Assembly: GCA_016297695.1 (NCBI GenBank)
Contig: JAEDGC010000004.1
Location: 8,074 to 72,073 of the forward strand
Length of the DNA: 64,000 bases
Origin: Bacilli bacterium
Lineage (GTDB): Bacteria > Bacillota_I > Bacilli_A > RF39 > UBA660
Direction of reading: 5' to 3'
This document shows positions 33,001 to 39,000 of the stretch, in pieces. The number at the start of each line of letters is the position of its first letter. Positions within the stretch are counted from its first letter, which is position 1. A program made the position numbers.

Positions 33001-36000
33001 TTTACAATGCAGCAAAAGAACCAGAAATTGTAAATGTTGCAACATTTTTAAATAATATGGGAGCTAAAATCACTGGCGCTGGTACTAGTAAAATAAAAAT
33101 TGAAGGAGTTGAATTTTTACATAAAGGAATAATTGAAGTTATTCCTGATCGAATTGAAGCAGCAACATATATAATTGCTGGAGCTTTAGTTGGAAATAAT
33201 TTAAAAATAAATGGTGTTATTAAAGAACATATGGAATCTCTTTTATCTAAACTTAGTGAAATGAATGTTAATTATAAGCTAAAAGATTTTGAATTAACTA
33301 TTAGCAAAACAGATAATATGAAACCAGTGTCTATTAAATCACAAGTTTTTCCAGGATTTGTAACAGATATGGGACAACCTATGAGTGTTTTACTTACTCA
33401 ATGTGATGGTATATCTTTTTTTGAAGAAACTATTTACGATAATAGAATGGGACACGTAAAATACTTAAATAATATGGGTGCTGATATAAAAGTAAAAGAA
33501 AATACTGAAATAATATGTGGAAAAACGAAATTACAAGGCAAAAAAGTAATTGCTACAGATTTAAGAGCGGGAGCATCTTTAGTCCTTGCTGGTTTAGTTG
33601 CAGATAAAACTACAGAAATAAGTCAAATTGATCATATCTTAAGAGGATATGCTAATATAGTTGAAAAACTTAATAATGTTGGAGCGAAAGTAAAAATTGT
33701 TGATGAATAATCGCTCTTTTTCTTTTGTTAAAAATTTGATACAATATTTTTAGGAGAGTGATAATATGAAAATATATATCATATTAGCAATTGTAGTTTT
33801 AATAGTTTTATATGTTTTAATTGTAAACAATATAATAATAAAATATGCTAATAGAGTTAAAGAAGCTTTTTCAACTATGGATGTTTATTTAAAAAAAAGA
33901 TGGGATTTAATACCTAATCTAGTAGAAACAGTAAAATCATATGCTAAATATGAAAGTGATACATTAGAAAGTATCATAAAATTGAGAAATACTTCCTATG
34001 ATGATATGTCTAATGAAGAAAAAATCCAAAAAAATCAGGAAGCTGTTCAAGGAATAAATAAATTAATAGCTCTTTCTGAAAATTATCCTGAAATAAAAGC
34101 CAATGAAAATTTTATTGAATTAAGTAATCAATTGACGCAAGTCGAAAATGAAATTGCTAATTCTAGAAAATACTATAACGCAACAGTTAGAGAATATAAT
34201 AATAAAATTCAAGTTTTCCCAAATAACATAGTAGCTTTAATATTTAGACATAAGTCATATGAAATGTTTGAAGCTAAAGCAAATGAAAAAAATAATGTAG
34301 ATGTAAAGCTATAAGAGGATAAAATATCAAAACAAATTCTTAGAGGTGTATTTTATGTATGATGTAGTAATTATTGGTGCAGGACCAGCTGGATTATTTT
34401 CTGCTTATGAGTTAATAGTAAATAATCCAAAATTAAAAGTATTGTTGTTAGATAAAGGCCCTATGGCCAAAAATAGATTTTGTCCAATGAATAAAAACAA
34501 TATTCCATGTGCCAATTGTAAAATATGTAATATAATGTCTGGCTTTGGTGGAGCAGGAACATTTTCTGATGGGAAGTTAAATTTTATTCCTAAGATTGGT
34601 AAATCAGATTTATTTAAGTATATGACTGAAGAAGAAGCTAATAAAATAATAGATGACACAGAGGTAATATTTAATAAATTTAAAATGGATAGTGAAATTT
34701 ACCCTTCAAATATTGACGAAGCTTTAGAGATAAGAAAGAAAGTGGCATTAGCTGGATCAAGGCTTTTATTAATAAGACAAAAACATTTAGGATCAGATAA
34801 ATTGCCAATATATATTCAAGAATTTACTGATTTTTTAAGTAAAAGTGGCGTAGAAATAAAAGAAAATACAGAAGTTGTTGATATTATTTCAAATTCTTTA
34901 GATGAGCATGAAATAAAATGTAAAAATCTAAAGAAAGAGTTTAGTGTAAAAACAAATAATATTATAATTGCACCAGGAAGAAGTGGCGCTAAATGGGTTC
35001 AAGAATTAGCCGATAAATATAATATTTCTTATACTTCTCAAAGTATCGAAATTGGGGTAAGAGTAGAAGTTAGAAAAGAAATTTTGGAAGATATAACAAA
35101 TGTTATATATGACCCTACTATATTTATTAAGACTGATACATATGGTGATGAAATTAGAACATTTTGTACAAATCCTGGGGGATTTGTTGCTAAAGAAAAT
35201 TATTATGGCTATATTTGTGTTAATGGTCATGCTTTGAAAGATAAAAAATCAAATAATTCTAATTTTGCCTTCATTAGTAAAGTAAATTTGACTCAACCTG
35301 TTACAAATACTAGACTTTATGGCGAATCTATTGCAAAAATAGCTAATGTTCTGGGTGATGGAAAACCTATTATTCAAACTCTTAAAGACTTAAAAAGTGG
35401 TCGAAGAAGTGAGTGGCATAGAATAAAAAAAGGGTTTATAACTCCAACTCTTAGTGACTGTGTAGCTGGAGATCTTGCATTAGTTTTACCTCATAGAATA
35501 ATTACGAATATATTAGAAGGGTTAGAAAAACTTGATAAAATAATACCTGGTGTAAATAATGATGAAACACTGCTATATGGTCCAGAAATAAAATTTTTTA
35601 GTAATGAAATTACAACAAATAATAATTTTAAATTGGAAAATTACAATATTTATTTTGTTGGTGATGGTGCTGGTAAAGCTGGCAATATAGTTACTGCAGC
35701 AGCAACAGGTCTAATTGCTGCCAGAGATATATTAAATAAAAAATTATAGACTTTTCTATAATTTTTCTTTTCTAAATCCAGCATTTGTCATAAGTTAGGC
35801 AATATTTCTTAGATTCAGATCATACAAAAGAAAATATATATAAAAAAGGTGATTGCTATTAAAGGTAACAAACGAGAATTTACAGAAGCGGAAATACATT
35901 ATATTATTAGTAATTGGGGAAAAGAGTCTCCTCATAGCATGAAAAAAAAGTTTAATTGCACATGGTATGCAGTTTGCAAGATAGCAGAAAAACATGGTTT

Positions 36001-39000
36001 AGAAATACCTACATCTAATGAGTGGACAGATGAAGAGATTGAAACATTAAAAATATTATCAGATAAATATCATTATTCTGAAATAGCAAAAATTATGAAT
36101 AAAACAGAAAATGCTATTTATATAAAGGCTAGAAGATTAGGAATAACTTTAATACAAGATAGAAGAAAATGGACAGAAGAGGAAGAAACTTTATTATCGG
36201 ATTTATGGGGAACTAAGTCTATTGAAACTATAGCAAAAACTATGAAAAGAACTGTTTTTTCTATAAAAGTAAAAGCTGTAAGAATGGGACTTGGACCTAT
36301 GGTTAGAAATAATTATGATCTTATTACAGTATCTGACATGTGTGATTTACTTAATGTTACTCGTGATAGAATAACAACTACATGGATTGATTTAGGATTA
36401 AATTTAAAAAAGAAAAAGTTAACTAATAATACGGCATATTATGTCATTACATGGAATGATTTAATGGTTTTTTTAGAGAATAATCAAAATGAATGGGATT
36501 CAAGATATGTTGAAAAAAATATGCTTGGCACTGAACCTGAATGGTTAAAAGAAAAAAGAGATAGAGATTTAAAAGAAAATCCTCTTTGGTATCGTAAGTG
36601 GAATGAAGAAGAAATAAAACAAGCAGAAAACTTATTTAAATCTGGCAAGAATTATTTAGAAATTGCCAAAATTATAAACAGAAGTGAATGGGCAGTAGCT
36701 AATTTGCTTAGGAATATGGGGTACAGTTCTATGCTTCCTCAATTTTGGAAAGGTAAAGAATTAAAATATTTAAGAGAAAATTATGAAAATATGACTTATT
36801 CAGAAATAGCAGAAGCATTGGGAAGAACAACGAAAGCTATTGGGGCTAAAGCCGAAGAACTAGGTTATCAAAAAAGACTAACAAAATCAAAAAATAATGG
36901 TGGTGAAAGTAATGACTAGAAGATTATCATTGGATGAAACAAAAAAATGTTTAAGAGCATGGCGAGAACTTGCTGATAAAGAGGCATTAGAAGTTTTAAT
37001 AATTTGTAATGGTGGATTAGTTGGATTTTTTGCTAAAAAATATCTAGGGAAGGGTTTGACTTTCGAAGAATTACAATCAGCTGGTAATGAAGGTTTGTTA
37101 AATGCAATTAATAAGTTTGATTATAATGAAAAAGCAATAGAAGGATTTAGTTCCTATATTTCTACTGCAATTGAAAATCAAATGAAGAGGGAATTAAAAA
37201 AATATAATAAACATAGTCATGTATTAAGTTTTGATCAACCAATAGGTCAGAATAAAGATGGAGATGAAATGAAAATAGAAGATTTAATTGGTACTGATGC
37301 AGAACAATTAATAGAAGACGTAATATCTGAAATGAAAATAGATATTGTTCGTGAAGCTTTACAATGTTTGACTTCTAGAGAACAACAAATTATTTTATTG
37401 CGATATGGTCTTGATGAAGTACATCAAAAAACACAAGATGAGTTAGCAGAAATATTCGGATGCTCTCAAGCCACGATTGCAAGACTAGAACAAAAAGCAT
37501 TAGTAAAAATGAGACATCCAAGGAATACAAGAAAATTAAAAGATTTTATAGAAGAATAGTTATGTAATTTTAATAAAACCTTAGTACCACGTATTCTTAA
37601 AAAAATTAATGCTGTTCATTCTGTTCAGTTACGTTCACTGAAAATATTTTATATTCATTATTGAACGAAGATTATAGATTTATTTATGGGTATATTGAAA
37701 AATCTAAAATATATAAATGATTATGAATGATAATAAATATAAAAGTTAAAGATACTTGAAAGTATTTTTTTAAAATCTTAAATGAAATTTTTCTGTTTGT
37801 TAAAAAACAAATTTTATAGACTTTTCTATAATTTTTTTTGATTAATTAAATATAATTAAATATGAATAATTATTATTGGAAAATGTTAAGCTTATTTTTA
37901 ATATTAGTAATAGTATTTTCTTTCTTTAAAGCAAATGCCTTACTTCCATTATCTGGAAAGATAATAATTGTAGATCCAGGACACCAACGATACCTGATAA
38001 CAAGGTATATAAAATAAGGACTTTTAAAGAAAAGTTCTTTTTTTTATGTGTGTTTACTTTGTCATGTAGAGATAGCATGGCAGATTAGAAAGGAGGAATA
38101 TGATGAATGATTGCAAGGTTATAGCAGTTGCTAATCAAAAAGGTGGAGTAGGAAAAACTACTACAACATTTAGTTTAGGAGTAGCATTATCTAAAATGGG
38201 TAAAAAAGTATTATTAATTGATGCAGACCCACAAGGAGATTTAACAACCTATATGGGTTGGTATAATCAAGATGAATTGCCTTTAACAATATCAGATCTA
38301 ATGGAGCATGAAATAAGTGATAGTCCACTAGATAGTAAAAATGCTATATTACACCATAAGGAAAATGTTGATTTAATACCATCTAATTTGGATTTCTCAA
38401 CAATGGAAATGAAATTAGTTAATGCAATGAGTAGAGAACAAGCAATGAAAAGTTGTATAAGTAATTTAAAAAAAGATTATGATTATATTATTATTGATTG
38501 TATGCCCTCACTTGGAATGATAACAGTTAATGCACTAGCAAGTGCAGATAAAGTTATAATACCTGTTCAAGCACAATATTTAGCAGCAAAAGGTATGGGA
38601 CATTTATTAAGGACTGTTTCAAGCGTTAAAAAGCATTTAAATCCTAATTTACAGATAGGTGGAGTATTATTAACATTAGTTGATAAGAGAACTAATCTAT
38701 CAAGAGAAACAAGACAAGAATTGGAAGAAAACTATGGGAGTATTGTAAAAATATTTGATACACAAATTCCAATGGCTATAAAAACGGCTGAATCAACATC
38801 ACAGGGTAAAAGTATTTTTAGTTATGATAAGAATAGCAAGGTTGCAGAAGCATATTCATCATTTGCAAGAGAAATAGAAAATGGAAGAACAAAAGAGAAA
38901 AATGCAACTACCAAAGATTACGAGAGATGAGTTTTTTACTACACAAGAAGAAAGAGATTTGCGAAGTAAAGAACATGTTGAAAATATAAAAATAAGTGAT

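Follow-up and report, generated by a model that had tools for sequence, protein, structure and literature searches.

A recombinase-less module between 23-bp direct repeats in an uncultured gut Bacilli bacterium: a probable remnant of a longer target duplication on a gene-end hairpin

The stretch of DNA analysed here, 64,000 nucleotides of contig JAEDGC010000004.1 in assembly GCA_016297695.1 and hereafter called the window, belongs to a lineage of uncultured gut 'Bacilli' known from metagenome-assembled genomes (MAGs) and has a G+C content of 25%. It contains a small regulatory module bounded by two perfect 23-bp direct repeats, which lies between the gene for a flavin adenine dinucleotide (FAD)-dependent oxidoreductase, called the FAD gene below, and the beginning of cwlD, which is in turn interrupted by an integrative and conjugative element (ICE). 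The lineage has sporulation genes, represented by SpoIIR upstream of the FAD gene and by CotZ and SpoIIIAH in relatives. The original prediction for this locus considered the repeats as attachment sites of a site-specific event, and the present text deals with what these repeats are and how they may have arisen. The features of the locus are the following:

34355-35749, forward strand: FAD-dependent oxidoreductase gene, 464 aa (Pfam FAD-depend_C and Rossmann-type families)
35744-35766, forward strand: left 23-bp copy, core of the terminator-like hairpin of the FAD gene
35772-35852, forward strand: decayed 3' stub of a large helix-turn-helix (HTH)-repeat gene (blastn and alignment by eye)
35858-36919, forward strand: small HTH-repeat ('Myb-like') gene, 353 aa in relatives (Pfam and PHROG matches)
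36912-37559, forward strand: sigma-70-family sigma factor gene, 215 aa, SigE/SigK-like (Pfam Sigma70_r2 and r4)
37560-37813, no strand: non-coding tail of the insert (allele comparison)
37814-37836, forward strand: right 23-bp copy, native upstream region of cwlD
37837-37983, forward strand: cwlD leader (25 nt) and first 41 cwlD codons, cut off by the ICE
37984-64000, forward strand: left part of the ICE in cwlD codon 41, outside the module and given here for its boundary only

The repeat pair and its hairpin

The 23-mer, TTATAGACTTTTCTATAATTTTT, is present exactly twice in the window, at 35744-35766 and 37814-37836, on the forward strand in both cases, and no third copy is found there with up to three mismatches allowed. 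The perfect repeats predicted at these coordinates, overlapping the TAG stop of the FAD gene, were thus recovered by sequence search, and the predicted dyad is real as well, reading TTATAGA-N4-TCTATAA and being confined to the two copies. The suggested search for further copies of the 23-mer gave none, either in the rest of the window or, as an exact match, in the JGI metagenome collection (0 matches). Two matches to the 23-mer were reached in none of 100 shuffles, and chance is no explanation for the two copies. Beyond the 23 bp, an imperfect similarity extends over 36 nt at 86% (35734-35769 against 37804-37839). The left copy covers the FAD stop codon (35747-35749) and the last two sense codons of the gene, and 25 nt separate the end of the right copy from the cwlD ATG (37862).

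Taken together with the A-run that precedes it (35739-35767), the left copy is predicted to fold in RNA into a 12-bp A/U stem with the loop CUUU (-9 kcal/mol, z = -4.8, with equally stable folds in 0 of 200 shuffles), followed by the U-rich tract UUUUUCUUUUCU. The right copy, in its own context, only forms the 7-bp core stem (-3.3 to -5.4 kcal/mol, z = -1.7). The succession of A-run, 12-bp stem, 4-nt loop and T-run at a stop codon is that of intrinsic terminators, including the bidirectional ones made of A-tract, hairpin and T-tract, from which the hairpin differs in having one G-C pair in its stem; the terminator scanner that was used needs at least three, and for this reason makes no terminator call. 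On these sequence features, the 23-mer represents the AT-rich, terminator-like hairpin that belongs to the FAD gene itself, a putative terminator. It is also part of the upstream region of cwlD, because only 42 nt separate the two genes where nothing is inserted. A promoter reading of the 23-mer was rejected, as it contains TATAAT but no sigma-70-type promoter is called there, and promoter-like sites in the region do not exceed the shuffled expectation. Among the RNA sequencing runs, only two match the region, with about 5% of its sequence words.

In a wider frame the dyad has an 11-6-11 geometry, AAAAATTATAG-ACTTTT-CTATAATTTTT, with no mismatch in the left copy; in the right copy, 9 of the 11 left-arm positions match. 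Across alleles the 11-nt arms are kept and the spacer varies, being ACTTTT, AAAATT, GATATA or AGTAAAT. In the positions below, and from here on, L codes denote contigs of relatives and X codes denote sequencing runs, which were kept as assembled contigs:

Hairpin loops: window 35751-35756 and 37821-37826; L105 11396-11401; L111 986-991; L089 7508-7514

The reverse complement of the window loop, AAAAGT, is one base off the loop of the empty-site strains described below, and a flipping of the loop within the hairpin is possible. In many orthologues of the FAD gene the stop codon is overlapped by a hairpin too, and hairpins with the same arms occur elsewhere, after the gene of an LPXTG-type surface protein in L052 and in 20 unrelated viral contigs. 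Judged from these relatives, the 23-mer is best described as a gene-end hairpin of a common AT-rich type and not as a dispersed repeat.

The module as an eroded fragment of an operon

The module was predicted to carry a Myb-like repeat gene and a sigma factor gene, nothing else, and no recombinase. Both genes are there, and domain and family searches found no recombinase or integrase encoded in the module or in the window; what has to be added is the decayed 3' stub of a third gene at 35772-35852. The stub has lost 49 nt internally and retains the former TGA stop (35850-35852), and its positions 35772-35836 match the 3' end of a large HTH-repeat gene at 77-81% by blastn, with a 49-nt gap, in L081, L083, L085-L087 and L090. 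The module thus begins, at its left end, with a truncated gene that starts within 6 nt of the repeat.

The small HTH-repeat gene encodes about five Myb/SANT- or sigma-region-4-like helix-turn-helix repeats, with matches to the Pfam families Myb_DNA-bind_6, GcrA and Sigma70_r4_2 and to phrog_323 (2e-44), and has no relative by sequence in PDB. Its start codon (35858-35860) is ATT in the window and in the sample from which the window derives. Runs X3 and X4 have ATG there, and every relative has ATG or GTG; the open reading frame (ORF) of 356 aa in the window begins at an in-frame GTG, 35849. The sigma factor ORF overlaps the end of the small gene by 8 nt. Its product matches SigA in PDB and scores far below the NCBIfam cut-offs for both SigE (134 bits against 339) and SigK (133 bits against 252), so that, on sequence, it is classed as a SigE/K-like paralogue and not as SigE or SigK. 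The alignment begins at model position 40 for SigE or 30 for SigK and leaves the pro-sequence region uncovered; a pro-sequence is probably absent, to judge from where the alignment starts.

In most relatives with sufficient flanking sequence, one or two genes that are paralogues of the small gene and encode 693-801 aa stand 5-6 nt upstream of the small gene and its sigma partner (L081-L083, L085, L086, L090, L092, L093), and L087, which is too short for the large gene, carries its 3' end. Identity to relatives is 88-91% by blastn from 35826 to the sigma stop (37558), and homologues of the small protein, 63-93% identical, are numerous in gut metagenomes. The genes that border the operon differ in every species examined, and no direct repeats longer than 20 bp surround it in other species. 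By comparison with these loci, the module is an evidently eroded fragment of a conserved operon in which genes for a large and a small HTH-repeat protein precede a SigE/K-like sigma gene. Both remaining ORFs are intact; because of the ATT start and of the deleted operon upstream region, the pair may be poorly expressed and heading for decay. The large gene has been lost independently in another lineage, where L091 retains short remnants (1-247). The number of HTH-repeat paralogues also varies, with two large genes in L090 (1554-7699) and L093 (1738-7633) and an additional upstream paralogue in L083 (1-382), and their internal repeats seem to make such genes prone to gain and loss.

As regards the non-coding tail, positions 37560-37603 are common to other alleles, the window lacking 29 nt that are present in X4 and L111, and the following ~200 nt (37604-37803) are absent at this position from the L111 allele and gave no informative match. 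The 'partial copy' of the repeat that had been pointed out at 37681 is an 11-mer in AT-rich DNA within these ~200 nt and carries no weight. No Rfam family was found in the non-coding parts of the module. In other species a conserved, G+C-richer non-coding stretch lies downstream of the sigma gene (L083 4455-4700, L085 8123-8400, L086 6387-6660); it reads ...AACACACTAC...GGCAGAGCCAA...GTGTGC.AAGG.GA.CC.TT.GAAACCC.TTTAAGCAA..., looks structured, and has no Rfam family in L085.

Two other origins for the module were considered and rejected. For a prophage, there are only distant phage homologues (25-40% identity), PHROG matches at the family level and no relatives in IMG/VR, and for a link to defence systems there is only a generic match of the sigma factor to MzaA.

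Empty, long and short alleles

A search for empty sites by a GTDB genome scan with the FAD protein was of no use because the 80 loci returned (75-83% aa identity) share no common gene order. The exact 464-aa FAD protein is on record, and exact look-up of the FAD and sigma proteins of the window gave matches only in the contig of the source sample itself; empty-site contigs were instead reached through members of the FAD protein cluster (99% aa). Six contigs from different samples (L105-L110) carry the FAD TAG, one hairpin with the loop AAAATT, the 25-nt leader and an intact cwlD, in the gene order UvrB...SpoIIR-MntP-MurA-LemA-FAD that is also present in the window. The two that were aligned, L105 and L106, are 96.8% identical to the window at the nucleotide level, over 11.4 kb in the first and 6.5 kb in the second. 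FAD and cwlD are joined in this way in contigs of X6 and X10 as well. The empty allele, with at least eight contigs, is the most frequent one at the site. In X10 the main strain, with the empty site, has a depth of 14.5x against 2.9x for any sigma-like sequence, and the operon is therefore accessory rather than core. Outside the species, L089 (FAD 86% aa) has a single hairpin, TTATAG-AGTAAAT-CTATAA, at the FAD stop, then 23 nt and the cwlD start, and L088 (FAD 91% aa) has a single hairpin, AAAAAAATTATAG-AAAATT-CTATAATTTTTTTT, at the FAD stop, followed by unrelated genes. The module is thus an insertion/deletion polymorphism within the species, and the check that had been proposed, a single repeat copy in relatives between the FAD gene and cwlD, came out as expected in L105-L110, X6, X10 and L089. 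The distance between the FAD stop and the cwlD start in L105-L110, 42 nt, is exactly that obtained for the window without the module, and replaces the intergenic region of ~110 nt that had been predicted.

A longer form of the insert is also found. In X9, one contig (37x depth) covers the FAD 3' end and the hairpin and, after a further 2,897 nt, reaches the sequence of window position 35842, which leaves room for ~0.5 kb and the large gene. In X9 and X13 the 30 nt past the hairpin read TTTGATTAATTAAATA-CT-AATAATTATTAT, corresponding to the leader of cwlD and its first codons, from which the ATG region has been deleted. The operon contig of X14, 4,750 nt long, has 37833-37881 at its beginning; at its other end, the 3' end of the sigma gene is followed by 64 nt and by 37803-37855. 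At the right end of L111, which has a sigma allele of the X9 type, the sigma gene is followed by 133 nt and an intact cwlD, and these 133 nt hold AAAAATTATAG-GATATA-CTATAATTTTTTTT and the leader. The direct repeat of the long form therefore extends, as pieced together from these contigs, over ~68-73 bp and comprises the hairpin, the cwlD leader and ~20 nt of cwlD. X4 has a small gene 99% identical to that of the window and a large-gene 3' end that is still intact. Relative to the long form, the window lacks everything between the end of the hairpin and the 3' end of the large gene. From these sequence comparisons, the 23-bp repeat is most likely what is left of a longer target duplication that included the terminator hairpin, and its length would be explained by a later 2.8-kb deletion that trimmed the left repeat of ~68-73 bp. 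FAD alleles and operon alleles are not linked, the flanks being recombinant among the long, short and empty forms.

Both flanks of the module are conserved. A ribosome-binding site, AGAGGTG, precedes the FAD ATG at 34355, which most likely is the start codon in place of the GTG at 34346 that was previously assumed. On the other side, cwlD encodes an N-acetylmuramoyl-L-alanine amidase, present as an intact 218-aa Amidase_3 protein in L105-L111. The window fragment of cwlD is 100% identical over residues 4-41 by tblastn, and window positions 37814-37983 match the empty-site strains except for the hairpin loop (95.6% over 37801-37983). Upstream of the cwlD coding sequence (37837-37864) there is no recognisable Shine-Dalgarno sequence and a perfect TATAAT stands 5 nt before the ATG; a leaderless cwlD transcript, with an upstream promoter element overlapping the hairpin, is a possibility.

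The neighbouring ICE carries genes for ParA, ParB, a SpaA/thioester adhesin, a sortase, a 2,444-aa SNF2 helicase, a Toprim protein and a MobA/VirD2 relaxase; its right end and its recombinase gene lie beyond the window. It breaks cwlD after codon 41 (DPGH|GG), with the same junction in L089 (7670-12021), and it is absent from the same-species strains L105-L111, X2 and X10. The ICE looks specific for cwlD and is possibly an intervening element in a sporulation gene. The ICE is found without the module in L089, the operon without the ICE in X2 and L111, and neither in L105-L110 and X10. Since each occurs without the other, the module is independent of the ICE, in agreement with the original prediction, and a link between the two was rejected. 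In several more distant relatives the FAD gene is also followed, at a distance of hundreds of bases up to a few thousand, by ParA/ParB-type genes 39-40% identical to those of the ICE:

ParA/ParB-type genes downstream of FAD: L047 11374-12298; L077 9381-9796; L025/L026 ~12426; also L056, L057 and L048

Further hairpins of this kind were seen around related genes. In L088, an 8.7-kb nicotinamide adenine dinucleotide (NAD)-salvage cluster (isochorismatase, NAPRTase, NUDIX, NAD synthase, PRPP synthetase, a NadD-like protein, CinA, NAD kinase and NrtR) stands between the FAD hairpin (2126-2143) and a second hairpin (10832-10848) with identical arms, AAAAATTATAG...CTATAATTTTTTTT, and a different loop; this pair could represent either a convergence of terminators or a second hairpin-bounded module. 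Similar AT-rich hairpins are located just upstream of the FAD gene in L088 (666-700) and L089 (6044-6075), so that the gene is bracketed there. Finally, contigs of X6 and X2 match 35733-35771 with a GT insertion after 35751, and represent a near-copy of the hairpin in a different gene context, with ...CCCTTATCAATA before it and AAATTTTGATTAATACATTTC after it.

Origin of the repeats and its meaning

The repeat, the hairpin, the empty sites, the long form, the stub and the independence from the ICE are the observations from which we infer an order of events and a mechanism of recombination. The favoured explanation, to which we assign a probability of roughly 0.55, is a one-off duplicative insertion, either illegitimate or homology-facilitated, that would have spared cwlD and then decayed. 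In a subset of strains, an accessory three-gene regulatory operon would have entered the first codons of cwlD, and the same event would have duplicated ~70 bp of the target, comprising the hairpin, the cwlD leader and ~7 cwlD codons. As a result, the FAD gene would keep its stop codon and hairpin, and cwlD would stay intact with its own upstream region, which must hold the cwlD promoter because the intergenic space measures only 42 nt. The event would have been a single illegitimate recombination, not the work of a dedicated recombinase, and could have followed either of two routes. By homology-facilitated illegitimate recombination of incoming DNA, the right end would have its anchor in cwlD, with an illegitimate joint on the left; this would also account for the loop and left flank of the right hairpin in L111, which differ from those of the FAD hairpin. 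By a template switch during replication, the same structure could be obtained, and both routes fit. A later 2.8-kb deletion would then have removed the rest of the left repeat, the operon upstream region and most of the large gene, leaving the perfect 23-bp repeat, the 80-nt stub and a small gene that now has ATT in place of its ATG, with more indels past the sigma gene. The repeats would allow precise loss of the insert by recombination or slippage, and exchange of the conserved flanks could spread either allele.

Several points weigh against this explanation. The long-form junctions are known from 30-nt loose ends and the coordinates of pieces only, and the X14 assembly graph fits a circular form plus an empty site equally well. 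The 11-6-11 arrangement is the core geometry of tyrosine recombinase sites, and conserved arms with a variable spacer are also what an attachment-site reading predicts; a ~70-bp block of identity at a gene end is likewise typical of integrase-mediated integration. The deletion behind the short form stops precisely at the edge of the hairpin, which under the model has to be either a coincidence or stimulated by the hairpin. Lastly, both copies in the window carry the loop ACTTTT, which is seen in no other allele.

Most of these points lead to the possibility that the hairpin, or the ~70-bp block, is a true pair of attachment (att) sites, attL and attR, of a recombinase-less element integrated and excised in trans by a tyrosine recombinase whose gene would lie at another place in the genome or on a helper element, similar to a cis-mobilizable element (CIME) or to an integrative mobile element exploiting Xer (IMEX). 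Such a pair would account for the perfect repeats, for the 11-bp perfect inverted arms around a 6-nt spacer that varies by allele, and for the precise presence or absence of the operon among strains with the same single-nucleotide polymorphisms in the FAD allele (X6 against X9); the repeat block restores both neighbouring genes, as the att sites of integrative elements do, the operon is at a different locus in every species examined, and the NAD-salvage cluster of L088 is also enclosed by same-arm hairpins. However, the short form has no integrase, excisionase or remnants of them, none being encoded in the window, and the long form has no room for an integrase, as its ~4.6 kb are filled by the operon and ~0.5 kb. 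In other species the operon has no flanking repeats, and no viral contig carries it; the adjacent ICE has its target in cwlD codon 41 and not in the hairpin, and the same type of hairpin is an ordinary gene-end hairpin elsewhere. Moreover, the loops of the long form appear unlike each other (~AAAATT on the left in X14, GATATA on the right in L111), which does not fit strand exchange within the spacer. We therefore regard this reading as unlikely, and the original proposal of the 23 bp as attL/attR as unsupported, given the terminator-type hairpin of the FAD gene, the ~68-73-bp repeat of the long form and the repeat-free operon elsewhere. A bolder version, in which the AAAAATTATAG-N5-7-CTATAATTTTT hairpin would be the recombination site of a host Xer-like or other tyrosine recombinase that shuttles modules without recombinase genes into and out of the hairpins at gene ends of this lineage, and thus part of a hairpin-bounded cassette system, is hinted at by the presence or absence of the operon exactly at the hairpin, by the fixed arms with variable spacer and by the L088 cluster, and is more doubtful still.

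The polarity of the polymorphism can also be turned around, with the operon ancestral between FAD and cwlD, the repeats produced by a local intergenic duplication, and the 'empty' strains derived by secondary deletion, so that no insertion would ever have taken place. Precise deletion occurs easily between direct repeats of 23-70 bp, and the long, short and empty forms do coexist in one species with recombinant flanks, but the outgroup L089 is empty with one hairpin, the FAD stop of L088 also has a single hairpin, empty alleles are the most frequent (at least eight contigs) and the depths in X10 (14.5x against 2.9x) mark the operon as accessory. As a duplication spanning the 4.6-kb operon would still be required and unexplained, this scenario is improbable, to about the same degree as an att pair. 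That the two 23-mers are independent AT-rich terminators, of the FAD gene and of the sigma operon, alike by convergence and chance, might be suggested by the recurrence of same-arm hairpins in unrelated sequences; it is effectively refuted by the long-form similarity that runs into the cwlD leader and coding sequence, in addition to the 23/23 identity that includes the loop, whereas loops differ among the other alleles, and to the second copy being found in 0 of 100 shuffles. A transposon or insertion sequence was rejected as there are no inverted repeats at 35767 and 37813, no transposase, and a duplication of 23 bp here against ~70 bp in the long form. An integron cassette was also rejected, with no GTTRRRY core in the hairpin and no integrase in the window.

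Among known systems, CIMEs are elements that have lost the integration and transfer genes while keeping attL and attR (PMC5704250). Those found near ICESt1 and ICESt3 at fda in Streptococcus thermophilus resemble the module in the absence of a recombinase, the direct repeats overlapping a housekeeping gene's end, the ICE neighbour and the variability among strains. The module differs from them in being without remnants of an ICE or of an integrative and mobilizable element, its content being restricted to the HTH-repeat gene, the sigma gene and a regulator stub. It also differs in that its operon sits at other loci in other species, free of repeats and of mobility genes, in that the neighbouring ICE uses another site, and in that its repeat is made of a terminator hairpin and the leader of the next gene, the 23 bp being attributable to the later deletion. 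Flanking repeats are thus present, 23 bp here and ~68-73 bp in the long form, but no sign of derivation from such elements. As to excision or integration in trans, the material consisted of assembled contigs, in which no matching joint was seen.

IMEXs and pdif modules are bounded by 28-bp Xer (dif-like) sites and are moved by the host XerC/D. The module is similar to them in having no recombinase, short 11-6-11 dyad sites and a variable centre. It is unlike them in that its site is at a gene end and not at the terminus or on a plasmid, and in that the long-form repeat far exceeds 28 bp; its arms, AAAAATTATAG and CTATAATTTTT, also show no obvious resemblance to the dif consensus.

Homology-facilitated illegitimate recombination or template switching leaves a duplicated target and is known in naturally transformable bacteria. 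The module is like the insertions so produced in being one-off, in the absence of a recombinase, in the duplicated target, in having one junction within a gene and in its later decay. No donor and no microhomology at the junctions were seen for the module. A duplication of ~70 bp that exactly spares the downstream gene is an unusual outcome by comparison with such insertions, and may reflect selection for an intact cwlD. All in all, the case is a variant of the known recombinase-free, repeat-flanked islets.

If the favoured explanation is true, the locus provides a natural recombinase-free duplicative insertion with its empty, full and eroded states within one uncultured species, and an accessory sigma/HTH-repeat operon can enter the neighbourhood of a sporulation gene without destroying the flanking genes, and then decay. 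For genome scans it recommends caution, as a perfect, dyad-bearing repeat around a recombinase-less module may be a truncated target duplication on a terminator. The probability that the hairpin is a true recombination site is small, but such a site would be of much greater interest. As for the operon, it is widespread among MAGs of gut 'Bacilli', uncharacterised and differently located in each species, and may merit a study of its own.

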